Sequence record: OR683401.1
DNA: 38,458 nucleotides
Reading direction: 5' to 3' (one strand)
DNA from: Pseudomonas phage Bise
Shown here one piece after another: positions 138-34,880 of the stretch. The translations under genes and the position numbers were made by a program. Below the pieces are notes generated by a model. That model searched no databases. It saw nothing but the letters and a program-made list of their open reading frames with translations, and was not told where the DNA came from. The first letter of the stretch is position 1; each line of letters begins with the position of its first letter.

Positions 138-623
138 TCAAATGCCGCCTTCCACGAAGTCGGCCATCATCTCCATCAGCACCGACCGCGCCGTAGGCGT
201 CAGCTCCAGGTCGCTGCCTTTCTTCCTGACCGGCATGTACCCACGGGCTGGAATAGTAACCTTCTGGCCGCGCCCGGCCTTGCCGCCGAGCTGCTGGATG
301 GCCGCGTAGGGCTTCGAGACGGACAAACCGGCCCGGCTGGCGTCGTGGAAGGGCTGGACGCTCGGAGCCAGGCCACCGGGAGAGCGTTGCAGCTTCTTGC
401 CCGGCCAGTGGCCAGCCTTCTCGCGTTGCCGGATGGTCGAGAGCGCCAGCGGTTTCCACTTGTCGCCGCCCACTTCGCCTTCGCGCTCGAAGGCTTCCTC
501 GGTGAGCGACAGCACCTCGGCCGCGATACCAGCCATCAGCGGCTCGGGATTCTGGAGGCGTGCCCTGATTTCTGCCAGTTTGGCACTTGCCTGGTCGTTG
601 ATCTCGACGTTCATGTCGGTCAT
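138..623 (-). CDS. Mu G-like virion morphogenesis protein
   Basis: Internal ATG of ORF 138..842 lies at 621-623 and overlaps the F stop codon as ATGA; sits downstream of F as in Mu. Confidence 0.55.
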   Translation of the reverse strand: MTDMNVEINDQASAKLAEIRARLQNPEPLMAGIAAEVLSLTEEAFEREGEVGGDKWKPLALSTIRQREKAGHWPGKKLQRSPGGLAPSVQPFHDASRAGLSVSKPYAAIQQLGGKAGRGQKVTIPARGYMPVRKKGSDLELTPTARSVLMEMMADFVEGGI

Positions 624-1408
624 GGCTGGCCTCCGTGGTAGTCGGCGGCCGGGTTGTAGTCCCAGCCCGCGTCGGGCTGGAACGGCCTCTCCATGCCCGG
701 CAGCGTCAGGCGCTTGACCTTGATCGTGGAGCCGTCGCGCTGCGGCACGTCCACCTCCTGGATGTGGCCTTCGGCGGACTCGACCTCGTAGCCGTTGCGG
801 CGGACGGCCGAGGCGGTCAGGGGCTGCGCGCGGCACCGGCACTTCCAGCCGTTCGGCGGATAGGCGACCGACCAGCCCGCATCATCGTGGCGGAACACTC
901 GCCCGTGCATGGCTCGGTGGGTCGGCCGTGTGCGGTTGTCCAGCACCGCCACGTAGCGCCAGAAGGGATGCGTGGCCGTGGCCGCCTTCATGCCGCGCCA
1001 GCGCCCGGCCTGGAAGGCGGTCTGCATGTTCTGCTCGTAGATCAGCTTCAGGCGGCGCGGACTGCCCAGCTCCACCGGGCGGTTGGTGCCGGGATACACG
1101 GTGATCTCGCCGGTCTCGTAGTCGATCTCCTTGCCCCACCAGCCCTTTGCTTGCAGCGTCGGGGTGAGCTTGTCGATGAACTGCTGGTAGCTCTCGCCCT
1201 TGCTCATGGACTCCACCAGCGCAGAGCGGATGTCCTCCAGCACGTCATAGCCCGCCGAGCGCGCCACGGTGAAGGCGCGCCGGTGCGCCGTCTGCCAGAG
1301 GTCGCGCCAGGACTCGCTGACCTGCAAGCCCTTGGAGCGCAGGAACTCGACCGCCTGCTCGGGCGGCATGTTGAAGGCGGCCAGGAGGGTGGACTTGTCG
1401 ATGCTCAC
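620..1408 (-). CDS. Mu F-like head morphogenesis protein (gp30 family)
   Basis: 262 aa; conserved C-terminal HP...PNGWKCRC motif of the Phage_Mu_F / SPP1 gp7 family; follows the portal. Confidence 0.8.
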   Translation of the reverse strand: MSIDKSTLLAAFNMPPEQAVEFLRSKGLQVSESWRDLWQTAHRRAFTVARSAGYDVLEDIRSALVESMSKGESYQQFIDKLTPTLQAKGWWGKEIDYETGEITVYPGTNRPVELGSPRRLKLIYEQNMQTAFQAGRWRGMKAATATHPFWRYVAVLDNRTRPTHRAMHGRVFRHDDAGWSVAYPPNGWKCRCRAQPLTASAVRRNGYEVESAEGHIQEVDVPQRDGSTIKVKRLTLPGMERPFQPDAGWDYNPAADYHGGQP

Positions 1409-3015
1409 TCGGTCAGCTCCTGCCGCACGGCGTCAGCGCCGAACAGTTCGGACACGAACAGGGCGCGGGCGATGGCTTCGACCAGCAGAGCGTCATCGGT
1501 CAGCGGGTTTTCACTGGCCAGCAGCGCCAGTGCGTCCTCGGGGCCGGATGCCCGGCCGAGGGCTTCCAGCGCAGGCTTCAGCCAGGCGGCCGCCTGCGGT
1601 TGCAGTACGGCGGACAGTTCCTCCAGTGCGCCATCGAGCACGGCCTGGTCGGGGAATTCGGAACCGGCCGCTGCTTCCTCGCGCAACGCCGCCACCAGTG
1701 CGGCCTTGGCGTCGGCCTTCTTGGTCTTGGGGGCGGGCGGCTCCTCCTTGGCCGGAGCGGCGGTGCTGGTGGCCAGGACGGCCTCCTTATCCGAGGTCGG
1801 CTGGGGAATCCGCAGCCGTTCGTGTGCCCACTGCGTCGGGATTTGCATACCGATGGCCACCAGCTTCGGCAGTGCGTCGGCGTAGACCTTGATGTCCTCG
1901 CCTTCGGTCGTGTCAAACACCAGGCGGGGGCAGCGTCGGAAGTCGGCCCAGCCTTTATTGATGGCCAGCAGCGGGTAGATCAGGTCGCGGGTGAGCGTGC
2001 CCGCGAGCTGCTTGCAGTCGCTGTCGCGGATGTCCAGGCGCACTTCGTTGTGGATTTCGGCCACGCCGGAGCCGAGGCCGGTGGCCTCGGTGGTGCTGGT
2101 CAATGTGCTGCCCAGGATGGCCTTCGATTGCGTCTGCTCGCACCACTTAATCATCACCTCAAACGGCTTTTCCGAACCCTTCGCGGCCTCCTCGAACTCG
2201 ATGGCCATCGCCGAGGGGATGACGCCTGCGGCGTTGTGGCCGATGCCCGCGACGGCGCGCCAGAGCGTTGCCTTTTCCTCGGGGCTGGCGTTGCTCGGAT
2301 ACTTGCCGATGCGCAGCGGCAGACCGTAGATGTCGAGGAACTCGGCCAGGTCGCCAACCGAGAAGTGCTTGAACAAGTAGGGCCACACCAGCACGCGGCC
2401 CAGGCCGGAGCGCACGGTGTAGCCGGACATGGCCTTGTGGACGTGCATCATCCAGCCAAACGGGCGCAGCGGCACGCCGTCCAGGGAGCTGTCGCGCAGG
2501 CGTAGCTCGGTGCGGGTGTCGCGGTCGAAGCGGAACCAGGTCTGCGGGCGGTGGTTGAAGCGCACCACCGTCCAGTCGCTTCCAACCCTGTCCCAGTCGT
2601 ACTCGATAGGCGCGAAACCGTGCCCGATGGCGTCCAGCGCATCGAACATGAGGTCTTCCAGGTCAGTCATGTCCAGCAGCAGCTCCTTGGCATAGGCGCT
2701 GGCTTCCTCCTCCTCCTTGCTCGGGTTGCGTGGCGGCACGATGTCCCAGGGCAGCTTGATGACGGCGCGCTTGCGCTTGGACAGTTCGGAGAAAACGTGG
2801 CCATCGCGTTCCTCCATGTCGCGGAAAAGCTCATGCTGCGCGATCAAGTCGCCGTTTTCCGCGCGCTCCAGGATGGAGTTCAGGCGTGCGGGTGTCAGGC
2901 CGCGCGAGGGATGCTGCGCGACCTCCCGATGCAAGTTGATAAGTTGCGAGGTCTGTGCCTCATCCAGCGACGCCATGTTGATGGGGTTGCCGTATTGGTC
3001 GAGAAGTTTTGCCAT
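1405..3015 (-). CDS. Portal protein (Mu gp29 / DUF935 family)
   Basis: 536 aa; N-terminus MAKLLDQYGNPI... typical of Mu-like portals; lies between terminase and F. Confidence 0.8.
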   Translation of the reverse strand: MAKLLDQYGNPINMASLDEAQTSQLINLHREVAQHPSRGLTPARLNSILERAENGDLIAQHELFRDMEERDGHVFSELSKRKRAVIKLPWDIVPPRNPSKEEEEASAYAKELLLDMTDLEDLMFDALDAIGHGFAPIEYDWDRVGSDWTVVRFNHRPQTWFRFDRDTRTELRLRDSSLDGVPLRPFGWMMHVHKAMSGYTVRSGLGRVLVWPYLFKHFSVGDLAEFLDIYGLPLRIGKYPSNASPEEKATLWRAVAGIGHNAAGVIPSAMAIEFEEAAKGSEKPFEVMIKWCEQTQSKAILGSTLTSTTEATGLGSGVAEIHNEVRLDIRDSDCKQLAGTLTRDLIYPLLAINKGWADFRRCPRLVFDTTEGEDIKVYADALPKLVAIGMQIPTQWAHERLRIPQPTSDKEAVLATSTAAPAKEEPPAPKTKKADAKAALVAALREEAAAGSEFPDQAVLDGALEELSAVLQPQAAAWLKPALEALGRASGPEDALALLASENPLTDDALLVEAIARALFVSELFGADAVRQELTE

Positions 3016-3024
3016 TCAGTGCTC

Positions 3025-4716
3025 CTACCAGCCAGCCATGCGGCCGCCGTATTCAAGATCGGTGTCGGTGTCCATCTCATCGACCTGCGCATCGCGCCGT
3101 GGCACTTCCATGTACTCGGCCAGCCATTCATCAACCGGGTTGAGCGCGGCGAACTGCATCAGCGCACCGGCCACCGCGCCGTCGCCGTGCCTGACCAGGT
3201 CGGCGTCCTTCAGGTCTTTGCGCTCCAGCTTCGGCACCATCGGGATACCGTCGATGAACTCGACGGCGCGATGGTCATCCTCCAGCGAGGCGTCGCGCGG
3301 CATGGTGATGAATCCGTCCTCGAACAGCGAGATGTATTTGCCCATCCACTCGCCGTACCAGGAACGCGAGAGCGTGATCTCGTGGACGGGGCCGCCGGTG
3401 TAGCCGCCCGTTTTCTCATCGAACACCGCGCGCCCGAACTTGTCGCCGGTGTATTCCATGAGCGTCTGGCCAGGGCCGGAGGCATCGCCCGCGAACGTCC
3501 ACCGCTTCAGCTCGCCCAGCAGCGCCCAGAGAATCTGCTCCTGCTGCCGGGTCGGGGCGTTGGCCAGCTCCAGGATGAAGGGCACGTCGCGGCGCAGATC
3601 GGCCGTGATGCGGGCGGGCGTGATGACCGAGAAGTGACGGTGGCGCGCGAAGTCCATGCCGACCGCCCAGCGTCCGGCAAAGCCGCGCTGGGCCTCGTTG
3701 AGCGCGGGCATGAGCGTGGTGGCAATCCACGATGCGGCCCATATCTCGCGCTCCTTTTCCGACCGTTTCGGGAAGTCGTCGCTGAAAACGATGCGGAGCA
3801 CGGGCCGGATTTCCGGCATTGCCCGTTCAATCCAGACCGAGGGAATAGCCGAACCGTCGCCATCACGCGGAATCACGTCCAGCTCCTCGCGCATGGCTGC
3901 CTTGCGCGGGCCATATGCGGCCCGGATGGCGGTGTACCAATCCCTTTTGCCTTCTTCGGTCGCTGGGATGCCTTTCATGGCACAAACGCGCTCGTAGAGG
4001 CCGTTGGCCACGGCGTCATCGAACGTGATGCGGATGCACCTGGCACGCTTCCCGTAGCGCCCGGCACGGACGTCCTGCACCAACTGGTGGAAGGCGTTTT
4101 TCTTGCCGCGATGCGATGACCAGACGCGAATGCGGCCGCCCCAAATGAGCAGAGCCGTCGCTGATTCGAGCACCTTGGAAACGTCCTTGTGCAAGGCTGC
4201 TTCGTCCAGGTCAACCAGCCCTTGCAAGCCGTGGATGTTTTCCGGCCGAGAAGAAAGCGCCGTGACGCGGAACCCGCTGGCGAAGCGGACGCGGAACGCC
4301 TGAATCTCGCGGCTGGTGCCATCGGCCCGCTGGTCAAGGAAGATGTGCTGCTCAATGCGCGTCGCCTGGCCACGCGCCACGATCTGCGAGAACTTGCCGA
4401 CATAGCCGATGTATTCCAGACCCTTTTCACGGGTGTCGGCCATGTACCACACGTTGCTGCCGCCTGCTTCCTTGGCGGTGGCGGCGGTGATCGTGTCGGT
4501 CAGGGCTTGTGCGAACGTGATACCCGTGCGGCGGCCTTTCTCGCACACCGAGATGTCCAAGTCCTGCTGCATCCGAATCCAGTCCGACTGGTGCTTCATC
4601 AGCACCCCTTCGGCGAAGGGGTCGAAGTCGGGAGGTATCTGGCGGACGTTCTCCGGCAGCTCGTCCCACTCGACGATGCGCTCGGTATCGGGGAGAGATG
4701 CAGGAATACCCATCAC
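3025..4716 (-). CDS. Terminase large subunit (Mu gp28-like)
   Basis: 563 aa; position and similarity pattern of Mu-like terminases. Confidence 0.8.
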   Translation of the reverse strand: MMGIPASLPDTERIVEWDELPENVRQIPPDFDPFAEGVLMKHQSDWIRMQQDLDISVCEKGRRTGITFAQALTDTITAATAKEAGGSNVWYMADTREKGLEYIGYVGKFSQIVARGQATRIEQHIFLDQRADGTSREIQAFRVRFASGFRVTALSSRPENIHGLQGLVDLDEAALHKDVSKVLESATALLIWGGRIRVWSSHRGKKNAFHQLVQDVRAGRYGKRARCIRITFDDAVANGLYERVCAMKGIPATEEGKRDWYTAIRAAYGPRKAAMREELDVIPRDGDGSAIPSVWIERAMPEIRPVLRIVFSDDFPKRSEKEREIWAASWIATTLMPALNEAQRGFAGRWAVGMDFARHRHFSVITPARITADLRRDVPFILELANAPTRQQEQILWALLGELKRWTFAGDASGPGQTLMEYTGDKFGRAVFDEKTGGYTGGPVHEITLSRSWYGEWMGKYISLFEDGFITMPRDASLEDDHRAVEFIDGIPMVPKLERKDLKDADLVRHGDGAVAGALMQFAALNPVDEWLAEYMEVPRRDAQVDEMDTDTDLEYGGRMAGW

Positions 4717-5234
4717 ATGCCCATCAAGACTTGTTCGCGCCAGAAGCGGGCTTCGTCGGCATTGAGGCCACGGGCCTGGGCAGCGGTGTCAACGCGCGCG
4801 GCAGCTTCTTCCAGCGCCTGCTTGCGGGCCTCGGCCTGCCAACGCTTCTGCGCCACGGATGCCTTGCCCAACTCGGCCACGGCGCGGGCGAGCTTCGGCA
4901 GATCGACCGCGTCAGGATCGACGTTCATCTCCATGAGGATGGAAAACATCTTTTCCTGGGTGAGCCGCACCAGGGCATCGTTGACCGCGCCATCGTCATC
5001 GGGCGCGGCCTGTACCACGGCACGGGCCTGTTCGGTGACCAGGCGCAGGGTTTTCAGGCGCTCCTCGAACGCCTGGCCGTAGTTGTGCAGGCTGGACTTA
5101 CCGATGCTGTAGCCGCGTTTGCCCAGCTCGGCGGCCAGGCGTTCGTACTGGCTGAAGTTGTTCTCCACCAGCGCCTGGTCGAGCCATGCTTTAACGGGCG
5201 CTGGGAGCGCCTCCACCTTCGAGCGGCGCGGCAT
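4713..5234 (-). CDS. Mu gp27-like (DUF3486) putative small terminase / DNA-binding protein
   Basis: 173 aa, MPRRSKVEALP... N-terminus; 4-nt overlap with the terminase start. Confidence 0.65.
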   Translation of the reverse strand: MPRRSKVEALPAPVKAWLDQALVENNFSQYERLAAELGKRGYSIGKSSLHNYGQAFEERLKTLRLVTEQARAVVQAAPDDDGAVNDALVRLTQEKMFSILMEMNVDPDAVDLPKLARAVAELGKASVAQKRWQAEARKQALEEAAARVDTAAQARGLNADEARFWREQVLMGM

Positions 5235-5240
5235 AGCGGC

Positions 5241-5555
5241 TCACCAGTACTTGGCCGGGCGCGCGATGCCCGGCTCACACGCGACCGTGTACTCGACCAC
5301 GTCGATGCCGTAGCGGTCGAGCTTGCAGAACCACTGCGGCTGCGAGTCGCGGCCGGTGATCGTGACCAGGTTGCGCTCGGCCAGGTAGTCCAGGTTGCGG
5401 CGCAGCTCCAGCGGCGTCAGGTCGGGCAGCATCGGCGTGATCGCCGACAGCACCACCTGTTCGCTGGTGCCCACGGGCTGCGCGGAGTTGAGGGCCAGCA
5501 AGATCAGCCAGCGCAGGTTCTCGCGCCGTGCTTTTTCCAGGTCGGGGGTCATCAT
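5241..5555 (-). CDS. Hypothetical protein (possible winged-helix)
   Basis: 104 aa ORF; GC3-rich; sits between lysis genes and gp27. Confidence 0.4.
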   Translation of the reverse strand: MMTPDLEKARRENLRWLILLALNSAQPVGTSEQVVLSAITPMLPDLTPLELRRNLDYLAERNLVTITGRDSQPQWFCKLDRYGIDVVEYTVACEPGIARPAKYW

Positions 5556-5830
5556 GACTTCTCCATCAATCTTTCAATACGTGCTCCGATTGCATCCAGC
5601 TTGGCGTTGAGCACGGTCTCAAAGCGGATGGCGTCCTCGCGCCGCTGGTATTCCAGCGGCAGCTTGGTCAGCGTTTCGTTGAGCTGGTTTTCCAGCTTGC
5701 TCACGCGGTCGTTTTGCTGGTCGATGCGGGCGTCGAGCTGCCGCAGCAGAATCTTCCCGAACGAGGCCAGGGTGCCGATGAAGCCCAGCAACAAGCCGAC
5801 CAGGTGCCAAAAATCAACTTGAATGGTCAT
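5552..5830 (-). CDS. DUF2730-like membrane / coiled-coil protein of the lysis region
   Basis: Internal ATG at 5828-5830 overlaps the Rz stop as ATGA; predicted TM helix followed by coiled coil. Confidence 0.45.
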   Translation of the reverse strand: MTIQVDFWHLVGLLLGFIGTLASFGKILLRQLDARIDQQNDRVSKLENQLNETLTKLPLEYQRREDAIRFETVLNAKLDAIGARIERLMEKS

Positions 5831-6324
5831 TGCGCTTGCTCCTGCTGGCTGACCCACGATTGCAGCGCCTTCAACTGTTCGGCGACTTCGTGATAGGTGG
5901 CGTAGTTTTCGACGACGGTGGCGGCAGCGGTTTCAACGCTGGCGGCGGGCGCATCAGCAACTCTGGCGGGGTCGGGAAGCTGGCCTTGGGCGGCGGCGTC
6001 GTGGAGCACGCGGAAACCGCCAGGCAAATCGCAGGCAGCAGCAGACGAAACATAGATTGGCACCTCCTTGATGATGTCCTTGCCGCGTTCCTTCACCACC
6101 TGGACGCGGTCAACGTATTGCGTCACCACCTGTGTGGTGACTTCGGCTTGGGTGGTTGCGGTCTGCGCAGCGGCCAGCTTCGTGGCTTCGCGTTCGGCGT
6201 CCCAGGCCGCAGTGACGCGGCCCTCGCCGTACTGACACCCGCCGATAGCGGACACGGCAACGATGCCGACCAGGCCCAGCAGCTTCCAGGGCAACGCGCG
6301 GATGAGGTCGATGGCGGCGCTCAT
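5827..6324 (-). CDS. Rz-like i-spanin
   Basis: 165 aa beginning MSAAIDLIRALPWKLLGLVGIVAVSAIGG (N-terminal TM anchor) followed by a periplasmic coiled coil; ATGA overlap with the holin stop. Confidence 0.55.
   Translation of the reverse strand: MSAAIDLIRALPWKLLGLVGIVAVSAIGGCQYGEGRVTAAWDAEREATKLAAAQTATTQAEVTTQVVTQYVDRVQVVKERGKDIIKEVPIYVSSAAACDLPGGFRVLHDAAAQGQLPDPARVADAPAASVETAAATVVENYATYHEVAEQLKALQSWVSQQEQAQ
5871..6053 (-). CDS. Rz1-like o-spanin embedded in +1 frame within Rz
   Basis: 60 aa; lipoprotein signal LLLPAICLAVSAC (lipobox) then proline-rich; lies entirely inside the Rz ORF. Confidence 0.5.
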   Translation of the reverse strand: MFRLLLPAICLAVSACSTTPPPKASFPTPPELLMRPPPALKPLPPPSSKTTPPITKSPNS

Positions 6325-6563
6325 GGCTTGTCCCCGGCGTTGGCGACGGACGCGGCGATGCTGCCGTACTTGAGCGAGAGGAACTTCGAGGCGGTGACGG
6401 CACCGGCCACGCAGGAGAGGTAGGCCCACCACACCTCGGTTTCGGCCTGACCCACCCAATTCAGCCGCACGAACGAAACGGTGGCGGCGGCGTAGCCGAT
6501 GTTGGCCCAAATCTTCGTGTGCGAGAGGCGGCCGTCGCGGGAGACCAGGTCGATGAGCTTCAT
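6321..6563 (-). CDS. Putative holin
   Basis: 80 aa from MKLIDLVSRD...; two hydrophobic segments; ATGA overlap with the endolysin stop. Confidence 0.4.
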   Translation of the reverse strand: MKLIDLVSRDGRLSHTKIWANIGYAAATVSFVRLNWVGQAETEVWWAYLSCVAGAVTASKFLSLKYGSIAASVANAGDKP

Positions 6564-7003
6564 GCCGAGGCAACCTCCAGCGGGGTCTTGCCTGCGGCGA
6601 GCTGGGCCAGCGACAGGCCGCCCGTGTATTGGAAGTGCGCGTATTCGCGGAACGTCTTCCAGCGGCCAGCCCATTCCAGGCCAGCGGCTTCACCGAGCTG
6701 GCCGATGCGTTCCCACAGCTTGCCGTCTGCGCCGGTGGTGTTCCACACGGCCTTGCCGTCGCGCAGTGGTACCACGTCGAAAGCAACGCGCCAGTTGTGG
6801 AAGCTCTGGCCCGCCTTGGCGTTGGTCACACGCTTGCCGGGCGTGGTGCGGCCTTGCGCATAGAGGGCTGCCTGGCTTTCCAGGTCGCGGTAGGTGGAGG
6901 TGACGATGATGTCGATGCCTTCCCGCTTGCAAGCGTCGAGGAAGGCTTGCGCCCGCGCACGCACGGGCGGCAAAAGATCGTCTAGGGAGCGAGAATTTTT
7001 CAT
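6560..7003 (-). CDS. Endolysin, peptidase M15 (VanY/D-Ala-D-Ala carboxypeptidase-like) family
   Basis: 147 aa; ...IIVTSTYRDLESQAALYAQGRT...SFHNWRVAFDV... resembles M15 zinc peptidase endolysins. Confidence 0.7.
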   Translation of the reverse strand: MKNSRSLDDLLPPVRARAQAFLDACKREGIDIIVTSTYRDLESQAALYAQGRTTPGKRVTNAKAGQSFHNWRVAFDVVPLRDGKAVWNTTGADGKLWERIGQLGEAAGLEWAGRWKTFREYAHFQYTGGLSLAQLAAGKTPLEVASA

Positions 7004-7036
7004 GCCGCCATGATGGCGGCGGCTCCCTGGTGAGGT

Positions 7037-7057
7037 GATTAAAGTGCTTTAGTTTCC
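7037..7057 (-). promoter_or_regulatory. Late-promoter activator site (P_lys equivalent), minus strand: GGAAACTAAAGCACTTTAATC
   Basis: Copy of the 5x conserved dyad motif; centre about 43 bp upstream of the endolysin ATG at 7003. Confidence 0.5.
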
Positions 7058-7414
7058 GTCCGGCAGCAGTGGCATCTGCCGGGTGCTTAGGTCGCGTTGC
7101 CGCGCCCGCTTCACGATGTTTCTCACCTGCATTTCCGTGAGGTCGTACTTGTGCGCGAGCATCTTGTAGTTGTCCCCGTTGAACTCCGACCAGATTTGCT
7201 CATCGCGTTGCGACAGCTCATAGGACAAGCCGCGCGGGATGTACTGTTGAACGCCTCCGATCTCCGTGCGGATGGCCTCGGTGATGGTGAACGCAAGCGA
7301 CGTGGCTTGCGCGATTTCGTGCGTGACCAGCCGGTTGTAGATCACCTGGCCGATCTGTTCGAGCAGTTCCGGGTATCCATCCGGGAAGTGCATCATCGTG
7401 CTCTCTGGCTTCAT
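7049..7414 (-). CDS. Mor/C-family late transcription activator
   Basis: 121 aa; C-terminal ...YKMLAHKYDLTEMQVRNIVKRARQRD... HTH typical of Mu Mor/C; last gene before the lysis cassette, as C is in Mu. Confidence 0.7.
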   Translation of the reverse strand: MKPESTMMHFPDGYPELLEQIGQVIYNRLVTHEIAQATSLAFTITEAIRTEIGGVQQYIPRGLSYELSQRDEQIWSEFNGDNYKMLAHKYDLTEMQVRNIVKRARQRDLSTRQMPLLPDGN

Positions 7415-8061
7415 GGTTTCTCCCTCTTATCGAGTGCTGTTTTCAGTGCTTCCCAAGCAGTTTGCATGGGGTCAAAGGTCTGCCGGGTTTGCGCCAGGCC
7501 GACCGTGGAGCGCAGCCCGGTCAGTTCCTCGTCGCTCAATGTGACGCTGCCGGTCTTGATCGCTTCCGATAAGGTTTGAGCCATTTCCCTCACCTGGCCA
7601 GGCAGGTAACGCATGGCCCATTTCTTCAAAGTCTCGATGAGAGCTTCCGTCTGGTCGCCGTTCGTCCATTGCAGTGCGTCTACCTTGGCGATGCGCTTCA
7701 CATAAGCAGCCAGGGCTTCCTCGGATGGGTTCTTCACCACGCCCAACTGGTGCAGGAACAACCAGAGAGCGCGTACCTTCCGCGCCTCCGGGTATTGCGC
7801 CAGGGGACGGCCCGGCCTGCTTTGAGCAGGAGGCCGGGCCGACTTCACCCGCACCTTGAAACCGCTGCGCTTCATGCGCTCCAGGACGCGCTCCAGCTCC
7901 GGCACGCTCATGGCCGAGGTGGAGTCCTTCTGCACACTGCCCATGAGCAGCGCGCGGTATATCTCATCGTCCAGGCCCAGCTCGCGCTTGCCCACATGAA
8001 TGAGACGTATGAGGCGCTGGCGAGCATCCTGATTAGCGGCGGTGCGGGCGGCGGACTTCAT
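7411..8061 (-). CDS. GemA-like (Mu gp16 / DUF1018) regulatory protein
   Basis: 216 aa; 4-nt overlaps with both neighbours. Confidence 0.6.
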   Translation of the reverse strand: MKSAARTAANQDARQRLIRLIHVGKRELGLDDEIYRALLMGSVQKDSTSAMSVPELERVLERMKRSGFKVRVKSARPPAQSRPGRPLAQYPEARKVRALWLFLHQLGVVKNPSEEALAAYVKRIAKVDALQWTNGDQTEALIETLKKWAMRYLPGQVREMAQTLSEAIKTGSVTLSDEELTGLRSTVGLAQTRQTFDPMQTAWEALKTALDKREKP

Positions 8062-8756: not shown

Positions 8757-9262
8757 GCCACCTCGACCTCGAACGGTTCGATGACGAAGTCCTCGATGCC
8801 GGTGACGATGTTGATGCCCGCGATGCCGCAGACGGCCTTGGGGTCGGCAAGCATGGCTTCCTTGTTCGGCTCCTCCTTGCTGCGGATGAAGCGGCCCAGG
8901 CCCAGCGAGCGCAAGGTCTCCAGCACCTTATCGACGCTGCGGATGCTGACGCTGGGCGGGCGCTGCCGCCACTTGACGAGGCCGGTGATGAGGTTGGCCT
9001 CCTTGCCACCGCCTGCCAGCAACTCGGCGCGGTGCGCTTCGCACCAGGTCTGGATGCCACCGGCCAGCGTGTCGATGCGGGTCTTGAGCGCCTCGATTTC
9101 GTCCTTGCGCCCGGCGGTGATGGCCGCGATCTGGTCGTTGATCTCGGTCTCCACCCGCGTCAGCTCGCGCTGTGCATCGCCCAGGGCGCGGATGGCTTCA
9201 ATCGTCAGTTCCTTGCTCTGGCACACCCACTGCGCGGCCTTTGCCTTTTTCTTCGTTGCCAT
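8753..9262 (-). CDS. gam: Host-nuclease inhibitor Gam (Mu Gam family, Ku-like)
   Basis: 169 aa; collinear similarity to Mu Gam (…LQRE..R.ETE.ND.IA.IT…GVQ.WCEA.R.EL..GGK..ANL.TG.V.WR.RPPSVSIR…LGL.RFIR.K.E.NKEA.L..PKAV.G.AGI…GIEDF.I.PFE). Confidence 0.85.
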   Translation of the reverse strand: MATKKKAKAAQWVCQSKELTIEAIRALGDAQRELTRVETEINDQIAAITAGRKDEIEALKTRIDTLAGGIQTWCEAHRAELLAGGGKEANLITGLVKWRQRPPSVSIRSVDKVLETLRSLGLGRFIRSKEEPNKEAMLADPKAVCGIAGINIVTGIEDFVIEPFEVEVA

Positions 9263-9638
9263 GTCGTGGCTCCTTCATTGATAGCGTTTTCTTGAGGTCT
9301 TTCATCAGCTCGCGGATGCGCGCCAGGTTCTGTTCGCGCACTTCCGGCGAGATAGGGGGCGGTGGCAGTTGGCGCGGTGGCGCGCGGGCACCGAGGTTGT
9401 CCAGGTAGAGCTTCGGCGGCGGCCAGCGGTCGCAGATGCGGAACAGCACCAGGAAGGCCCGCTCCATGCGCTCGCGGTCGAGGTGTTCCTCCCACGCGCA
9501 GCCGTTGTTCCAGATCGCCTCCAGCCATACCTCGGCGGTGCCGACGATGGCGTCCTCCGGCGGCGTTCCAGCCAGGCGAAGGGCCAGCAGCTTCTGCAAG
9601 CCGGTGGCGATGACGACGCGGAACCAGTCAGGCACCAT
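9198..9638 (-). CDS. Hypothetical early protein (3' end overlaps the gam start by 65 nt; boundaries uncertain)
   Basis: 146 aa ORF, GC3-rich. Confidence 0.35.
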   Translation of the reverse strand: MVPDWFRVVIATGLQKLLALRLAGTPPEDAIVGTAEVWLEAIWNNGCAWEEHLDRERMERAFLVLFRICDRWPPPKLYLDNLGARAPPRQLPPPPISPEVREQNLARIRELMKDLKKTLSMKEPRHGNEEKGKGRAVGVPEQGTDD

Positions 9639-10113
9639 GCTTGAAACTCTCCAGCGCGGCGATGCCAGACAAGGTCTTGGACGAAGCCTTGGTGACGCCC
9701 AGGCGCGGCGCGCTATCGACCACCAGGTTGCTCACCGTGGGGCGGTAGTTGGCGATGACCTCGTAGAGCCAGCCGTGGCCCTTGAGGGGCGTCTTGAGCC
9801 GCCCGGCGTCGCGGGCGGCCAGCCCTTGTTCGATGGCCCACACCCAGGCTTCCTGGGGCGCTTCATAGACCTGGCCGTTGCGCGTGATGCGCCCGGCCTG
9901 GATGTCCGGCAGCACCTCGGCCAGCAGCTTGCCCACGCGCTCCATCGTCAGCTCGCGCGCCTCGGGGCGGAACAGCGCGAGGTAGCGCACCAGGGCAGCG
10001 CCGACCGTGCCGGAGAGCTTGAAGGCGGCGGCGAGGGCTTCGCGTGCGCCTTCGTGGGCGACCAGCGCGTCGAGCGAGAGCGTTGCGCCGCAGGACGGGC
10101 AGCGTGTCCTCAT
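9628..10113 (-). CDS. Hypothetical early protein with an N-terminal CPSC zinc-ribbon-like motif
   Basis: 161 aa ORF; 4-nt overlap with the upstream gene. Confidence 0.4.
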   Translation of the reverse strand: MRTRCPSCGATLSLDALVAHEGAREALAAAFKLSGTVGAALVRYLALFRPEARELTMERVGKLLAEVLPDIQAGRITRNGQVYEAPQEAWVWAIEQGLAARDAGRLKTPLKGHGWLYEVIANYRPTVSNLVVDSAPRLGVTKASSKTLSGIAALESFKHGA

Positions 10114-10460
10114 TGCACCTGCTCCTTCGCGCGCTGGACTTCCTTCCAGATCACGCGGATGCCCTGGTAGTGGATGGAGCAGAGGCGGCTCCCATCGGCC
10201 TGGGCTTCGGTGGTGCGGCCGCGCCCCAGCTCCAGCAGGGGCTGGAGCTGCTTCGTGGAGCCGGGCATGACCGTGATGGTCGGGCGGTCGGTCATGCCGG
10301 GGTGGAGCGACTCCTGCACCACGCTGTAGCCCATCGCGCGCAGCTCGCGCGCGACACGGTTGACCGCCTCCAGGCGGGAAACGAACTCCTCGGTGAACAC
10401 TCTGCTCATGACATGCTCCGTATGGGCGATGGGGCGGACGAGATGCAGGGGGGCGGCCAT
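10110..10460 (-). CDS. Hypothetical early protein
   Basis: ATG at 10458-10460 lies 2 nt after the B stop (translational coupling); the alternative start MSRVF would be at 10409. Confidence 0.35.
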   Translation of the reverse strand: MAAPLHLVRPIAHTEHVMSRVFTEEFVSRLEAVNRVARELRAMGYSVVQESLHPGMTDRPTITVMPGSTKQLQPLLELGRGRTTEAQADGSRLCSIHYQGIRVIWKEVQRAKEQVQ

Positions 10461-10461
10461 G

Positions 10462-11688
10462 TCACGCCTCCTTGACGATGTCGGCGTCAACCACCGGAGC
10501 GCCCAGGCTGGCGGCCACGTTCATGGCGGCGGTGAGCGCGTTGGCGACGGCCAGGGGATAGGCCAGGCTGACGTAGGTGGTGCCCAACTGGCCGGACTTG
10601 GTGTTGGCGGCCTTCTTGGAGAAGGTCAGGCGCTCGCGCAGCGCGGCGATGCCGTCGGGCGTGATGACCTTGGAGACGTCCAGACCGACGCGGGCCAGCT
10701 TGAACTTCAGGTAGTCGGCCAGGTAGCCGTCGAGCGGCGGCAGTTCGACGATGTCGCAACGCTGCGCGACTTCGCGGATGTCGGGGTCGTTCACCGACAG
10801 GCGCTTGCGCAGCTCGGGCTGCGCGATCATCACCACCGACAGCATGGGCGAGAGGCCGTCCTTGATCTCGGAAAACCGCTTGAGATGCTTCAGCGTTGCC
10901 TTGGGCAAGCAGTGCGCTTCTTCGATCAGCAGCAGGTGGCGCTGGCCCGCGCGGTGCCCGGCGGTGAGCAGCTTCTTGACCTGGCGGGCGCGGGCCTCCA
11001 GGTCGCGCGCGGGGGAGACGCCAGGCGCGACGGTGTCGATGATGGCCTGCACGATGGCTGCGCTCTTGAGCGTCTTGCCCTTGGCGTCGTTCTCCTCCAT
11101 GTAGAGCACCGAGGGTTCAATCACGACCAGGTCGCGGCCCTCGCGCAGCAGGCGCTCCTTGAAGTCATCGACCAGGGTGGACTTGCCGCTGCCGCTCTCG
11201 CCGACGATGGCGAGCATCCCGCCGTGCTTGGCGGTCTGCCAGAGCGTCTCGCGCACGAAGCGGATGTCCTGGTTGATGAACACGTCGCTGGCCTGCGTGA
11301 CGTCGTTCTTGAACGGGTCGGCGGTGAACTGGAAGTGCGCGCGGGCAGCAGGGGTCAGGGTTTGCTTTTGCAGGAGCATGTCGGTTTCCTTCTCGGCAGT
11401 TGATGAGGTCGCGCTGGACGTGGGCGCGGTGGTGGGGCGCTCTGCGGCGTCCTTCGGTTGTGCGGGTTGCATGGCGCGGTCGATTTGCGCGGTGTCGGCA
11501 CCGGCGCGGCGCAGCCGGTCGGTGATCTCGGCGCGCAGCTCGGCGGTGTTCTTCTTCGGCCATTTGCCGTGGTTGACCAGGTCGGCCAGGGTGCCCGGTG
11601 AAATGCCCAGGTCTCGCGCCAGGTGGGCCTGGCGGATGCCGAGCTTGTCGAGCAGCCGTTTGAGGGGCGTGGTGCGTGGAGAGGCCAT
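10462..11688 (-). CDS. MuB-like transposition ATPase (AAA+), with an N-terminal HTH
   Basis: 408 aa; Walker A GESGSGKST; immediately downstream of the transposase. Confidence 0.8.
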   Translation of the reverse strand: MASPRTTPLKRLLDKLGIRQAHLARDLGISPGTLADLVNHGKWPKKNTAELRAEITDRLRRAGADTAQIDRAMQPAQPKDAAERPTTAPTSSATSSTAEKETDMLLQKQTLTPAARAHFQFTADPFKNDVTQASDVFINQDIRFVRETLWQTAKHGGMLAIVGESGSGKSTLVDDFKERLLREGRDLVVIEPSVLYMEENDAKGKTLKSAAIVQAIIDTVAPGVSPARDLEARARQVKKLLTAGHRAGQRHLLLIEEAHCLPKATLKHLKRFSEIKDGLSPMLSVVMIAQPELRKRLSVNDPDIREVAQRCDIVELPPLDGYLADYLKFKLARVGLDVSKVITPDGIAALRERLTFSKKAANTKSGQLGTTYVSLAYPLAVANALTAAMNVAASLGAPVVDADIVKEA

Positions 11689-13517
11689 TACCGGAACCTC
11701 CGCAGCTCAACCACGCTGCCGCCGTGCGTGCCGGTAGCGGCCTGCGCGACGTTCCACTGGTCGGCCCATGCCTGCGGCACGTTGCCGTCCGGGAAGGCGG
11801 CCTTGACCTGGCTGTAGAGGTCGGCCGGGGCCGCGTCGCCGAGGCGTTCCTTGATGGCGCGCACGGCCTCGGGCACCGTGAGCATGATCTGCACCGATGC
11901 GGCCTTGCTCTGGAGCTGCTGCACCTGGGGCGTCTGCACTTCCCCGGCGTTGGGCACCAGGCGGCGAGGCAGGTCGGCCTGGCCGAGGTGGCTGTGCGCG
12001 ACCAAGCCCTTGCCATCGTTGAGGTGGCCGAAGGGGCGGGCTTGCTCGGCGCGCTTCTTCTCGGCCTCGTCCACCGTGGTGCCGTCGCCCCAGGCTGCGG
12101 CGGCCAGCGTGTTCGCCGCGCGCTCGCTGGCGGTCTGCGGGGCACGGGCGTATTCCTCGCCCGCGACCGGCGCGGACAGCGGCCGCCCGTATTCGTCGAA
12201 CCCGCGTTCCGGCTCCACCTGCATCAGCAGCGGCTCCGCGCCCATGCGGTCGATCTCGATGCGTAGCGCGCCCTGCTGCATCAGCAGCGGCGTGATGCGC
12301 ACCTTCTGGCCGTTGCCCAGGAACTCGGCCCAGGGGGTCAGGTCGTAGCTGGCCTTTCGCCCCAGCTCGGGGTGCGCGAAGGTGATGTGCAGGTTGCGCA
12401 CCACGCGGGTCAGCTCCTGGCCCGCCATGAACCACTGGCACACCTCGCGCGCGGGCATCTGCACCAGCGCGCCGGGGTGGCGCATGATGAGCTGCCAGAG
12501 GTCGTCGCGCACCATCGGCTGACCGCTGGCGCGCACCAGGCGGCAATCGACCTTCTCGATGGCGTTGGCGTTGAAGTCGCGCACCCAGCGCGCCGCCGAG
12601 GCGTTGAGCTGCTCGACGCTCTCCACTGGCTCAAAGCGCAGGCGGCTCTCGAAGTGGGTCTCCACCAGGTTGTTTCCCTGCTCGACGCCGCCCTTGCCCC
12701 AGGAATGGCCGGTGGCGTGCGTTTCGTGGTCAACGCCCAGGGCGTCGAGCAGGTTCTTGATGGCGAAGCTGGTGTTGGCGCTGCCTTTGTCCCACAGCAG
12801 CATCTTGGGCACGCCATGCGACATGCGGCCGGGCTGCTGGCCCCAGGTGTAGAGCAGGAACTCGAACAGGCTGTGCTGGTTCTCGCCAGCGGCCTCGAAG
12901 TAGCGCACGTCGATGGTGCCGCTGGCGTGGTCGTAGCGGACGTAGCGCCACACCTTGAGCCGCACCTTGTCCATGCTGGCGGGCTTGTTCTTGTAGAACT
13001 CCTCGTCGCGCATGATCGCCTGCCCTTTCGGCGTGTAATAGATGAGGCAGAGCGAGGGGTCGATCTGGTGCAGGTGGTTGGGGTGCAGGCTGCGCAGGGT
13101 GATGTGGTTGCGGGCGGCGGCCTGGGCCTTGGCGTCCATGCGGGCGGCGCGCAGCAGCGCGTTGACGCGGCCCTCGGAGACGGTCACGTCGATGCCGTTG
13201 GTGTGCGCGATGTTCATGGCCACCGCCGTAGGCAGCGTGGCCTTGCCGTTGCCACGGATGCCTTCGCGCTTGGCCGCCGCGATGAAGTGCAGCGTTTCCT
13301 TGGGCAGCGCCGTGGTGCCCGCGTCGGCGCGCTTCTTGCGGCCGGTGCGGTAGCCCGCGTAGTTGCGCAGCCAGGTATAGACGGTGGAGGGGTTCTTGCC
13401 GATGAGGCTGGCAAAGCGATGCACCAGCTCGGTCGCCGAACCATGCGGGGCCGCAGCGATGCGGTCGCGCAGGGCGAACAGCTCTTGCAGCAGGTCTGGA
13501 GCGAGTTGATGGGCCAT
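11688..13517 (-). CDS. MuA-like DDE transposase
   Basis: Likely start MAHQLAPD at 13515-13517 (ORF 11688..13817 has an implausible Pro/Ser/Arg-rich extension); about 610 aa Mu-transposase-like core. Confidence 0.8.
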   Translation of the reverse strand: MAHQLAPDLLQELFALRDRIAAAPHGSATELVHRFASLIGKNPSTVYTWLRNYAGYRTGRKKRADAGTTALPKETLHFIAAAKREGIRGNGKATLPTAVAMNIAHTNGIDVTVSEGRVNALLRAARMDAKAQAAARNHITLRSLHPNHLHQIDPSLCLIYYTPKGQAIMRDEEFYKNKPASMDKVRLKVWRYVRYDHASGTIDVRYFEAAGENQHSLFEFLLYTWGQQPGRMSHGVPKMLLWDKGSANTSFAIKNLLDALGVDHETHATGHSWGKGGVEQGNNLVETHFESRLRFEPVESVEQLNASAARWVRDFNANAIEKVDCRLVRASGQPMVRDDLWQLIMRHPGALVQMPAREVCQWFMAGQELTRVVRNLHITFAHPELGRKASYDLTPWAEFLGNGQKVRITPLLMQQGALRIEIDRMGAEPLLMQVEPERGFDEYGRPLSAPVAGEEYARAPQTASERAANTLAAAAWGDGTTVDEAEKKRAEQARPFGHLNDGKGLVAHSHLGQADLPRRLVPNAGEVQTPQVQQLQSKAASVQIMLTVPEAVRAIKERLGDAAPADLYSQVKAAFPDGNVPQAWADQWNVAQAATGTHGGSVVELRRFR

Positions 13518-13533
13518 GTCGAGTTCCTGCGCG

Positions 13534-14427
13534 TCAGGCCGCTTCTGGCGTGTATGCGCCCAGCGACTTGTCGAAGGTGGTGCGTTCCTTCTCCAGCCCG
13601 GCCTCGGCCCGCGAGAGCGCCTGCTCGTACACCTCGGCGATGTGGGCCAGCGCCGCGTCGTACTTCGGGCGTTGCTCATCCGGGACTTCCTGCGCGACCT
13701 CGAACAGCGTGATGCGGCAGGTTTCCAGCTCGCTGATGGCCTGGGCGAGCTTGCGACCGGCGGCGGCAACCTGCTCGGAGACTGGCTCCAACGCATCGGG
13801 CCAGTCCGTGTCGGCAACCACCTTCTTCTTGAGCTGCACCTGGAGGCTGGTGAGCTTCTTCTGCGTCTTGTCCAGCACGGCGTCCTTGGCTTCCAGGTCG
13901 CCTTGCAGGCTGCGGATGGCGTTCCGCAGTTCGCCCGCGCTCATGCGGTCGATGTCGTCGATGTCCTTCAGGTTCTCCAGCACGTCATCGTCGTGCGTGA
14001 CCAGCTCCAGGAAGGCGCTGGCGCTTTTCACCTGTGTGCTCAAAAGTGCCAAATTGGCAGATTTCGCCGTCTTGGCAGCAGCCTGCATGAAGCGCGCGGC
14101 CGACCTGTAGCTGAAGCCGAGGAACTCCACACGCTTCTCGAACTCGCCGTGCGGCGTCAGCTCGCGCAGCACCAGGAGCCGCTTGCCAAGCTCCAGCAGC
14201 GACTCGACAGTGCGGCGCTGGTAGAAGCGGATTTCGTCCTCCAGCGCGCCGATGGTCAACGTGCCTTCGTAGCCGATCTCGGTGGCGATGGCTTGCGCCG
14301 CAGCTTCCTGCTTGGTCTGCATGACCGCGAGCTGGTTGGCTGCGGCGACAGCGGTGGGCAAGCCCGGCAGGTCGGCGTCAGCGACGACCTCGGCGACAAC
14401 TGCGGTCTTGGTGGCGGTTCGGGCCAT
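13534..14427 (-). CDS. DUF3102-like coiled-coil early protein
   Basis: ATG at 14425-14427 preceded by AAGGAG; 297 aa, Ala/Glu/Leu-rich. Confidence 0.45.
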   Translation of the reverse strand: MARTATKTAVVAEVVADADLPGLPTAVAAANQLAVMQTKQEAAAQAIATEIGYEGTLTIGALEDEIRFYQRRTVESLLELGKRLLVLRELTPHGEFEKRVEFLGFSYRSAARFMQAAAKTAKSANLALLSTQVKSASAFLELVTHDDDVLENLKDIDDIDRMSAGELRNAIRSLQGDLEAKDAVLDKTQKKLTSLQVQLKKKVVADTDWPDALEPVSEQVAAAGRKLAQAISELETCRITLFEVAQEVPDEQRPKYDAALAHIAEVYEQALSRAEAGLEKERTTFDKSLGAYTPEAA

Positions 14428-14786: not shown

Positions 14787-14966
14787 TCAGGCGGCGGGTT
14801 TGAGGCCCAGCTTCACCGCGATTTCGTGGCCCTTGCCCCAGCGGGCTTTGCTCTGCCCGTTGAGAACCAGGTACACGTCGCGGCGGCTGTAGCCGTTTTC
14901 CTTTGCCCAGGCACTGAAGGTTTGGCCCTTGGCGCGGAATCGGGCCTTCACTTGTTCAGGGGTCAT
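14787..14966 (-). CDS. ner: Ner-like DNA-binding protein
   Basis: 59 aa (below the ORF-track cutoff): MTPEQVKARFRAKGQTFSAWAKENGYSRRDVYLVLNGQSKARWGKGHEIAVKLGLKPAA; Ner/Nlp-family pattern; first gene of the leftward early operon. Confidence 0.65.
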   Translation of the reverse strand: MTPEQVKARFRAKGQTFSAWAKENGYSRRDVYLVLNGQSKARWGKGHEIAVKLGLKPAA

Positions 14967-15036
14967 CGGCGGCGTCCTTGGTTACGAACTTGTTATGTAG
15001 ATTATATCTACTTTTATAGATTTGCAAGGAGGGCTT
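14967..15036. promoter_or_regulatory. Divergent c/ner switch region. AT-rich, with the perfect 13-bp palindrome TAGATTATATCTA (14998-15010) and a half-site repeat TATAGATTT (15014-15022)
   Basis: Only AT-rich stretch in the region; lies between the divergent starts of ner (14966, minus) and the repressor (15037, plus). Confidence 0.55.
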
Positions 15037-15468
15037 GTGGCCGACTTTGAAAAAATCCTGCTGCGCCTGAAAGAGCAGCTTGGTGTCTCGACAGACAAGG
15101 AAGCAGCAGAGCTGCTAGGGCTTTCCGACAAGGCGCTCAATGCCAGGAAGCGGCGCGGGGTGTTCCCCGAGGAGAAGCTGTGGGTGCTCTCGGCGAATCG
15201 CCCGGATGTAGATGCAATCTACATTTTGCGAGGCGTGAAGAAGGGCGAGGAGCACGCCACGCCAGCGGCGCAGTTGCTGCGCATGAAGGTGCTGGCCAGC
15301 CTGGTAGCCGACGAGCTGCACAAGCGCAAGGCCAGCCTGTCCGAGGTCAGCTTCCATGAGCTGCTTGACGAGCTGTGGCCGGAGTGGAGTGCTGATGCTT
15401 CGCCGGAACCAGCGGCGCTACGCGGGCGCATCGGGCACGCATTGAAGGTGCGAGGCATCAAGGGATGA
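15037..15468 (+). CDS. CI-type phage repressor (Phage_CI_repr HTH domain); probable GTG start
   Basis: Perfect SD CAAGGAGGG at 15025-15033 then GTG at 15037; ...DFEKILLRLKEQLGVSTDKEAAELLGLSDKALNARKRRGVFPEEKL... matches the CI-repressor HTH family. Confidence 0.7.
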   Translation: MADFEKILLRLKEQLGVSTDKEAAELLGLSDKALNARKRRGVFPEEKLWVLSANRPDVDAIYILRGVKKGEEHATPAAQLLRMKVLASLVADELHKRKASLSEVSFHELLDELWPEWSADASPEPAALRGRIGHALKVRGIKG

Positions 15469-15731: not shown

Positions 15732-15756
15732 GGAAAAACTAAAAGCCTTTACTGTC
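15732..15756 (+). promoter_or_regulatory. Late-promoter activator site (P_I): GGAAAAACTAAAAGCCTTTACTGTC
   Basis: Copy of the conserved dyad motif; centre about 41 bp upstream of the I ATG. Confidence 0.5.
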
Positions 15757-15787
15757 TGCCGCCCATGCCGCTCGGCAAAGTGGCGGC

Positions 15788-19213: not shown

Positions 19214-19239
19214 AGCAAAAACTAAAGACCTTTACTGTC
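19214..19239 (+). promoter_or_regulatory. Late-promoter activator site upstream of gp36: CAGCAAAAACTAAAGACCTTTACTGTC
   Basis: Conserved dyad motif; centre about 42 bp upstream of the ATG at 19271. The downstream leader CGCTCGGCAAAGTG(A/G)CGGCATGGAC is near-identical to that of P_I. Confidence 0.5.
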
Positions 19240-19270
19240 CCCGTGGTGGGGCGCTCGGCAAAGTGACGGC

Positions 19271-28658: not shown

Positions 28659-29296
28659 ACATGGCCACGGGCGGCGTGCGCTACAAGCAGGGCATCGTGG
28701 CGGAGTCGCGGCCGGGCTTTGCCCGCGTTCGCTTCGACGATGTGGACGGCCTGGTCACGGCCTGGTTGCCGCTGCTGCACCCCAAGACCTTCGCCGACCA
28801 GGTGGTGTGGACGCTGGACGCGGGCGAGCACGTCGGCTGCATCCTGGACGAGTTCATGGAGGACGGCTGCATCCTCGGCGCGATCTATTCCGACGCCGAC
28901 GCGCCGCCGGTGAGCAGCCCGGACAAGTTCCGGCTCCAGTTCAAGGACGGCGGCTCGGTCGAGTACGACCGCAGCAGCGGGGCCATGAACATCGTCTGCA
29001 AGGGCGTTGCAAATCTGACCGCCGATGGCGACGTGACGGTGAAAGCGCCTTCGGTCACGCTGGACACGCCGCAGACCACCTGCACGGGCAAGCTGACCGT
29101 CGAGGGGCTGCTCTCGTATAACGGCGGCATGGTCGGCAAGGGTGGCAGCGGCGGCGCGGCCGCCAGCATCAGCGGCACCGTCGAGGTTGAAGGCCGACGA
29201 GATCAGCCTCAAGCAGCACCGGCACAAGGAACAGGGCGACGGCTCGCCGACCAGTGCGGCGATGCCGTAGCACCCGCAGAAACTAAAGCCCTTTAA
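28655..29296 (+). CDS. Baseplate assembly protein V-like (spike)
   Basis: 213 aa; gpV-like OB-fold N-terminus. Confidence 0.6.
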   Translation: MNMATGGVRYKQGIVAESRPGFARVRFDDVDGLVTAWLPLLHPKTFADQVVWTLDAGEHVGCILDEFMEDGCILGAIYSDADAPPVSSPDKFRLQFKDGGSVEYDRSSGAMNIVCKGVANLTADGDVTVKAPSVTLDTPQTTCTGKLTVEGLLSYNGGMVGKGGSGGAAASISGTVEVEGRRDQPQAAPAQGTGRRLADQCGDAVAPAETKAL

Positions 29297-29300
29297 TCGC
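29276..29300 (+). promoter_or_regulatory. Late-promoter activator site upstream of the baseplate operon: GCAGAAACTAAAGCCCTTTAATCGC
   Basis: Perfect TAAAG-CC-CTTTA dyad; centre about 42 bp upstream of the ATG at 29332; overlaps the 3' end of the V-like gene. Confidence 0.5.
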
Positions 29301-29331
29301 TGAAAAGAGGGGCGAACGCGACCATAGCCGC

Positions 29332-34741: not shown

Positions 34742-34791
34742 AAGGGGGTGCGGTAGCACCCACCAGCAGCGCAACAGCATGTGATGGGTCT

Positions 34792-34824
34792 CCCGGTCGC
34801 GTTAGCGACCGGGCGATTTTTTTT
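34792..34824 (+). other. GC-rich hairpin with 4-nt loop (CCCGGTCGC-GTTA-GCGACCGGG) followed by T8; DGR target-recognition hairpin and/or terminator
   Basis: About 54 bp downstream of the VR; 9-bp stem. Confidence 0.55.
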
Positions 34825-34880
34825 CAGGGGGTGGTGCGATAAAATCGCAAGCGGATTTTGATTGGGGAGGCGGGGCTGGA

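Follow-up and report, generated by a model that had tools for sequence, protein, structure and literature searches.

Five putative activator-dependent late promoters, four of them predicted to start leaderless operons, in a Mu-like transposable phage

Background

In bacteriophage Mu, the middle promoter Pm is activated by Mor, and the four late promoters Plys, PI, PP and Pmom are activated by C. Both proteins bind an imperfect dyad that lies just upstream of, or overlaps, a non-optimal -35 element, and the -10 element of these promoters is weak (10.1101/2025.05.02.651988; PMC4461284). The tail promoter of Mu precedes gene P, its lys, I and com genes have leaders with a visible Shine-Dalgarno sequence, and com is followed by Mom. 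Closer in layout to the DNA studied here are BcepMu (Bcepmuvirus) and the Ralstonia phage YO107_2, which share with it a leftward early operon ending in mor but have their lysis and head genes on the rightward strand. Burkholderia phage KS10 is also Mu-like and has, as here, a head module split between two strands (PMC2628397), but in KS10 mor is followed by I, and the lysis and terminase genes diverge from the repressor.

The window, i.e. the whole stretch of DNA that was analysed, is 38,458 bp long and carries a Mu-like transposable phage. A near-identity DNA search against sequenced phages gave no useful match, and the named phages are only distant relatives of this one. The first-pass annotation had described its late promoters as the exact counterpart of the four C-dependent late promoters of Mu. 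The likeness holds for the family of the activator (Mor/C), for the dyad next to a poor -35 region with a weak -10, and for the placement of the putative promoters before lysis, head (I), tail/baseplate and DNA-modification (com) genes. It does not extend to an exact equivalence: there are five promoters rather than four, a single activator stands in place of the Mor-to-C cascade, the site sequence is not the same, the tail and baseplate promoters stand before gp36 and W and not before P, four of the promoters abut an ATG where the Mu genes have leaders, and com is followed by a D12-class Dam methyltransferase rather than Mom. The architecture appears to be a variant on known Mor/C-dependent promoters, with a leaderless design that would be unusual. 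No published description of the architecture, or of the corresponding sites in BcepMu and YO107_2, was found in the literature searched, which takes in few of the subscription journals.

Genome organization

The window has about 66% G+C and a BcepMu-like layout, and the host would be a betaproteobacterium of Burkholderiales or Rhodocyclaceae type. Leftward genes span from about 14,970 down to 620. They comprise a Ner-like 59-aa ORF (14787-14966, minus strand; outside the default ORF list), an early IclR/MarR-type helix-turn-helix gene, transposase A (11688-13817) and transposase B (10462-11688), Gam, GemA (7411-8061) and mor, and then the M15 endolysin gene (6560-7003), gp27, large terminase, portal and F. 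The rightward genes are the CI-type repressor, protease/scaffold I (15788), capsid, gp36 (19271), sheath (20580), tube, tape measure, baseplate W (29332), tail-fibre genes, a retroelement cassette, com (36841) and the D12-class methyltransferase (37001). The early control region (14787-15040) is divergent and contains the direct repeats TTATGTAGATT and TTTTATAGATT and the near-palindrome TAGATTATATCTA; the repressor probably starts at GTG 15038, behind AAGGAGG.

The head module is split, with the lysis, terminase, portal and F genes following mor on the minus strand (620-7003) and I and the capsid gene starting from 15788 on the plus strand. In two related loci (L004 and L021) the split lies elsewhere and the tail module directly follows the ner-like gene, and the split of KS10 is different again. 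Since L004 and L021 differ from the window in this respect, the module breakpoints coincide with the motif-bearing promoters described below.

A complete diversity-generating retroelement is found at 33647-36637. Its variable repeat (34615-34730) forms the 3' end of a probable tail-fibre gene (33647-34741), and all 9 mismatches between this repeat and the template repeat (35329-35444) fall on an A in the template. The element further includes bAvd (34881-35294) and a reverse transcriptase gene (35549-36637) with IGNLLSQ and YVDD motifs, and a strong terminator-like hairpin (34792-34813) lies between the fibre gene and the rest of the retroelement.

A palindromic motif at five sites

The motif AAACTAAAG-NN-CTTTA occurs exactly five times in the genome, once on the minus strand and four times on the plus strand. 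All five copies reported in the first-pass annotation were recovered at their positions, and the inverted-repeat core that it had described, TAAAG-N2-CTTTA, proved to be part of a longer 16-bp palindrome, A-N-TAAAG-NN-CTTTA-N-T. This length follows from the T at +2 after the motif, which is invariant in 50 distinct instances from this and related phages and mirrors the A at -13. Relative to the predicted start point (+1), the 16-bp palindrome occupies positions -50 to -35 and the 16-nt motif as scanned positions -52 to -37. A scan allowing up to 2 mismatches gave six matches, corresponding to the five sites and the reverse strand of one of the palindromes, whereas the mean over 100 dinucleotide-preserving shuffles was 0.00; the five copies are thus far in excess of chance. 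A weight matrix derived from these copies scores them at 35.6-41.7 bits and returned elsewhere in the window only the opposite strands of the palindromes or matches of at most 7.7 bits, and hence neither further copies nor a scatter of copies inside genes.

The motif of promoter 1, AAACTAAAGCACTTTA (7040-7055, minus strand), precedes the lysis, terminase, portal and F operon and overlaps the TAA stop codon of mor (7049-7051). It is followed by the -10-like hexamer CATCAT (7010-7015), the discriminator GGCGGC (7004-7009) and the ATG of the M15 endolysin gene (7001-7003; Pfam PF13539), with the predicted +1 at 7003; a copy downstream of mor is conserved in relatives L028-L043. Promoter 2, in front of the operon for head protease I and capsid, has the motif AAACTAAAAGCCTTTA (15736-15751, plus strand), the -10-like sequence CAAAGT (15776-15781) and the discriminator GGCGGC, and the ATG of gene I coincides with the predicted +1 at 15788; the product of gene I matches Mu-like_Pro (PF10123, E = 1e-73). 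At promoter 3 the motif AAACTAAAGACCTTTA (19219-19234, plus strand) leads the gp36, tail sheath, tube and tape-measure operon, with CAAAGT at 19259-19264, the discriminator GACGGC and the gp36 ATG, again the predicted +1, at 19271. Promoter 4 serves the baseplate W and tail-fibre operon; its motif AAACTAAAGCCCTTTA (29280-29295, plus strand) overlaps an upstream stop codon (29294-29296), its -10-like hexamer is GACCAT (29320-29325), its discriminator AGCCGC, and the ATG at the predicted +1 (29332) begins a W/gp25-like gene whose product matches GPW_gp25 (PF04965).

Promoter 5 carries a variant motif, AAACTAAAGTGCTTGA (36631-36646, plus strand), which overlaps the TAA stop of the reverse transcriptase gene and precedes com and the Dam methyltransferase gene. 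Its -10-like hexamer is GATGCT (36671-36676) and its start is predicted near 36683, where a TGA stands in the place of the ATG of the other four sites. The first gene, com, begins only at 36841, and the transcript is predicted to have a leader of about 158 nt (36683-36840) and hence not to be leaderless. The com-like zinc-ribbon gene (36841-37044; Zn_ribbon_Com PF10122, E = 3e-12) overlaps the start of the next gene (ATG 37001) in the manner of com and mom. That gene (37001-37825) encodes a Dam-type D12-class N6-adenine methyltransferase (MethyltransfD12 PF02086, E = 1.4e-28) and not a Mom protein. Loci collected with the Dam methyltransferase as anchor (L060-L083) belonged to other phages and were without the motif.

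Spacing of motif, hexamer and start codon

At four of the five sites exactly 36 nt separate the last base of the motif from the ATG (7003 on the minus strand, 15788, 19271 and 29332) of the first gene, i.e. endolysin, protease I, gp36 and baseplate W. The distance of about 42 bp between motif and ATG proposed earlier is exact at these four, where the dyad centre lies 42.5 bp from the A of the ATG, and fails at promoter 5 with its TGA. A hexamer of the form [C/G]A-NNN-T is located 25-30 nt past the motif, corresponding to -12 to -7 when the numbering takes the ATG's first base as +1. The full register accordingly reads motif, 24 nt, hexamer, 6 nt, ATG, and promoter 5 shares its motif-hexamer part.

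Related loci were gathered from genome and viral collections by way of the tail sheath, and also by way of Mor and of the motif itself. They are prophages or viral contigs of Burkholderiales and Rhodocyclaceae-type bacteria, among them Accumulibacter, Variovorax, Polaromonas, Hydrogenophaga, Brachymonas and Methylotenera. The TAAAG-NN-CTTTA core is kept upstream of the lys, I, gp36 and W orthologues down to about 45-60% protein identity; small departures from it, for example TAAAC-NN-TTTTA and TCAAG-NN-CTTTA, occur. Most of the bases from motif to ATG vary freely, with a few exceptions: of the 50 distinct instances, 49 carry A at +26 and T at +30, and the remaining one is displaced by 1 nt, while G at +23 (equivalent to -14) is found in 90% and C at -1 in 88%.

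When sites were selected blind to the ATG, by the core together with A at +26 and T at +30, 57 distinct sites were obtained, and 52 of them had an ATG in register (41 at +37 and 11 at +38) as against about 3% expected by chance, counts which draw on mutually related sequences and therefore overstate the statistical weight. One of the 57 has a possible GTG start. As a control, exact motif matches were examined in viral contigs: among the matches listed, 8 of 8 from contigs above 55% G+C were in register (+37/+38), compared with just 2 among the roughly 115 chance hits from A+T-rich contigs. In about 20% of the relatives the ATG lies at +38, and once at +40. At the +38 sites the hexamer is still found at +25 to +30, and this constancy despite the shift of the ATG indicates that the frame of reference runs from motif to hexamer to start point.

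These data bear on the idea that the motif has no role in transcription and serves instead as an RNA element, or in recombination or packaging, at module borders. Module order does vary among relatives, with breakpoints near motif copies when L004 and L021 are compared with the window, and three copies (those at mor, at the gene ending at 29296 and at the reverse transcriptase gene) overlap the TAA stop at the end of the upstream gene. The dyad as RNA, however, would form an unstable 5-bp A/U stem with a 2-nt loop, an Rfam search gave no match, and with four copies in direct and one in inverted orientation, recombination among them would lead to loss or inversion of essential genes. A non-transcriptional role would also leave the fixed register of the hexamer and the ATG unexplained, and we consider it scarcely credible.

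The late region was searched for a consensus sigma-70 promoter and none was found, as expected of activator-dependent promoters. Other promoter types were considered and rejected: a sigma-54 promoter for its wrong GG-to-GC spacing, a sigma-32-like promoter for a spacer that would be about 21 nt, and a MerR-type spacer operator for lack of conservation at the upstream -35.

Comparison with BcepMu and other phages

In a de novo search the register was present in the window and in the Ralstonia phage, and it could be recognised in BcepMu by inspection; the search found it absent from Mu, KS10 and Pseudomonas phage Ps59, and no motif of the window type was found in KS10 either. In BcepMu and YO107_2 a 12-mer, 24 nt, a hexamer, 6-7 nt and an ATG (+37/+38) precede I and W, and a G+C-rich inverted repeat surrounds the hexamer, as in the window. 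Their right half-site is nevertheless a variant (TAAAG-NN-[GC]ATTA instead of CTTTA), and their Mor is 34% identical to that of the window and has another recognition helix. Their lysis promoter differs as well, in that the module is followed by an A and then by a 22-23-nt leader with a Shine-Dalgarno sequence. Since here the module precedes a leader, it appears to be tied to the transcription start and not to the start codon.

The annotated start of BcepMu gp32 (protease I) is at 18850 (L044, NC_005882; 18813-18864). Judging by the register, the start is probably the in-frame ATG at 18862 (MNAKPLH...), 12 nt downstream, which stands at +38 after TAAAGCCGATTA. The register can in this way be used to correct annotated start codons. 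If the prediction holds, it provides from sequence alone a complete map of a five-operon late regulon for an uncultured clade of transposable phages, and, if true, the map would extend to BcepMu-type phages of Burkholderia and Ralstonia. The module also suggests a design for compact Mor-dependent expression cassettes for Burkholderiales.

The putative activator

The gene at 7049-7414 (minus strand), the last of the leftward early operon, was proposed earlier to encode a Mor/C-type activator, and its product indeed matches Pfam PF08765 (E = 8.9e-27). It is the sole copy, as a search for a second Mor-family gene in the window found none. Its location at the end of the early operon is like that of Mu mor, and promoter 1 begins on its stop codon. 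The helix-turn-helix TEMQVRNIVKR (recognition helix EMQVRNIVKR) shows no variation among any of the relatives in which the motif is kept; an alignment-based scan of viral contigs with Mor gave no relatives beyond the first 16. The covariation of Mor and motif is weak evidence, since both are simply conserved within the clade and both change only in the comparison with BcepMu.

The position of the palindrome agrees with what is known of Mor and C. Positions +2 to +7 past the motif are a poor match to TTGACA, and the palindrome ends two bases before the position of a -35 hexamer (17-bp spacer). Relative to the predicted start, the dyad thus lies upstream of a non-optimal -35, and a -10 element is found at a fixed distance from the activator site. 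The five sites are very probably late promoters with the palindrome as the activator site, and we place equally high confidence in the product of 7049-7414 as the likely activator.

One alternative accepts the five late promoters but has the palindrome read by some other factor (a host protein, the Ner-like, IclR/MarR-like or GemA products, or an unannotated early ORF), with Mor acting elsewhere or indirectly. Several early ORFs (9198-10490) are indeed without an assigned function, two further helix-turn-helix proteins are encoded nearby, and within the clade Mor and the motif show simple conservation. Yet no late activators of Mu-like phages other than Mor and C are known, and just one such protein is present, the position of the dyad with respect to the -10 element fits the Mor and C sites of Mu, and the c/ner control region, the early operator, has different repeats of its own and no copy of the motif. 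In BcepMu-type phages, moreover, the half-site and the Mor recognition helix both differ. We regard another factor as improbable.

The explanation that we favour, with moderate confidence, is that of a Mor-bound palindrome at five activator-dependent late promoters, four of them heading leaderless operons. We infer Mor binding and Mor-dependent transcription as follows. A single Mor/C-family activator, produced at the end of the early operon, would recognise the 16-bp palindrome, its binding site being centred 42.5 bp before the start point and immediately upstream of the poor -35 region. The bound protein would bring the sigma-70 RNA polymerase of the host to the five promoters, which would otherwise be silent and which all have the weak -10 [C/G]A-NNN-T and G at -14. 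At the lysis/packaging, head, tail and baseplate promoters the register would make transcription begin with the A of the ATG, and the first cistron of four leaderless mRNAs would be translated without a Shine-Dalgarno sequence, while the fifth promoter would give the leader of about 158 nt followed by com and the Dam-type methyltransferase gene.

Predicted leaderless transcripts

Leaderless mRNAs are uncommon in Proteobacteria, a known example being the lambda cI mRNA from PRM, and the need for high expression of the late genes counts against such a design here. Almost all internal genes of the window have GGAG or AGGAG 6-10 nt upstream. A GGAG-like Shine-Dalgarno sequence was also looked for upstream of the four motif-led genes, all of which begin with ATG, and none was found, a combination characteristic of leaderless genes. 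The N-termini of the encoded proteins are conserved in relatives from residue 1-2 (MKNSRSL, M-x-YAT, MVA), third-codon-position variation begins directly after the register ATG, and the Pfam Phage_Mu_Gp36 match begins at residue 3. For gp36 an upstream start is excluded by an in-frame TAA inside the motif. Judged from these sequence comparisons, the register ATG is the true start codon of the motif-led genes.

A hexamer at -12 to -7, a 6-nt discriminator, C at -1 and A at +1 constitute the canonical geometry for initiation at A. The late mRNAs of the four operons therefore probably start at the A of the AUG, and it is quite likely, if slightly less so than the identity of the promoters themselves, that the four predicted transcripts start within 2 nt of this A. 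The first-pass annotation had suggested very short or leaderless late transcripts. This is strengthened at four promoters by the missing Shine-Dalgarno sequence, the constant ATG, C at -1 and A at +1 and the conservation beginning at the ATG, and it does not apply to the fifth with its predicted long leader. As T is never found at -12 in the -10 hexamer and the discriminator is rich in G+C, the start point could be 1-3 nt off the A of the ATG, and relatives with the ATG at +38 or +40 may have transcripts with a 0-3-nt leader or a 7-nt discriminator.

With lambda cI the four operons would share the start at the A of the AUG, the absence of a Shine-Dalgarno sequence and the strict use of AUG. 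They would differ from it in scale, as cI is one regulatory gene, whereas the prediction here covers the structural and lysis operons of an entire activator regulon, and does so throughout a clade. If true, a set of structural and lysis operons with high expression would be leaderless as one, which is rare in Proteobacteria, and would offer a natural system for the study of leaderless translation and of RNA polymerase positioning by Mor/C activators.

Inverted repeats around the -10-like hexamer

A G+C-rich inverted repeat flanks the -10-like hexamer in many promoters of lys and I, the types at which it is mainly found, and its last base immediately precedes the ATG. The 3' arm coincides with the discriminator (-6 to -1), and the loop covers roughly -11 to -7. 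In the window it is found at 7004-7020 (minus strand; lys arms GCCGCC at 7015-7020 and GGCGGC at 7004-7009) and at 15758-15787 (plus strand), and among relatives also in L022, L024, L026, L032, L034, L039, L044 and L206. The arms covary between lineages with complementarity kept, in at least 9 arm sequences (GCCGCC/GGCGGC, GTCGCC/GGCGAC, GTCGGC/GCCGAC, GCCGTC/GACGGC, AAGCGC/GCGCTT, ACCGC/GCGGT, AGGGC/GCCCT and others). Perfect 5-6-bp stems occur at 21 of 50 sites in a flexible search, compared with about 5-10% in swap and shuffle controls. The signal is modest in a fixed-position test (0.54 paired vs. 0.45 ± 0.02), the stem position being variable, and within the window, folding superior to that of shuffled sequences is confined to the lys and I sites (z = -1.7 and -2.6). 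The W-class promoters are without the repeat, and the lys stem of the closest relative carries a change that is not compensated.

The repeat also figures in a further alternative, which assigns the -10 element to the 3' half of the motif (TTTAAT/TTTACT) and treats the dyad as an operator that overlaps it. Transcription would then start about 7 nt past the motif, and the leader of about 29 nt would form a G+C-rich hairpin abutting the AUG, possibly as a 5' stabiliser. The invariant T at +2, which makes TTTA[AC]T resemble TATAAT, and the covarying inverted repeat between motif and ATG in many lys and I promoters are both in keeping with this. TTTA[AC]T, however, is without the key A at -11, and there is no conservation at the corresponding -35 or upstream activator position. 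The invariant A at +26 and T at +30 would be left unexplained, also in the hairpin-free W-class promoters, as would the 16-bp symmetry. A leader without a Shine-Dalgarno sequence and with a stable hairpin at the AUG should, moreover, block the translation of abundant late proteins, and in BcepMu and the Ralstonia phage the module precedes a separate Shine-Dalgarno leader, which ties it to the start point. For these reasons we hold a -10 element within the motif to be very improbable, and retain the hexamer at +25 to +30 as the predicted -10.

With the start point predicted at the ATG, the repeat might still act on transcripts that read through from upstream: on these, it may be speculated, the hairpin and the missing Shine-Dalgarno sequence silence the first cistron. 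A broader and quite tentative proposal, which we think rather doubtful as a whole, is that the dyad, the hexamer inside an inverted repeat and the AUG at +1 represent an ancestral design of betaproteobacterial Mu-like myophages, in which first cistrons would be translatable only from Mor-started transcripts and leaderless initiation would serve as an insulator. If true, translation of endolysin, protease/scaffold, gp36 and baseplate W would be tied to promoter choice.

The W-class promoters show a different feature. In the window (29296-29320) and in L003, L006, L014, L019 and L020, a segment about 10-21 nt past the motif is complementary to the motif, reading TAAGGGCTTTAG in the W promoter of L014, and this segment may be a second, degenerate activator site or a structural element.
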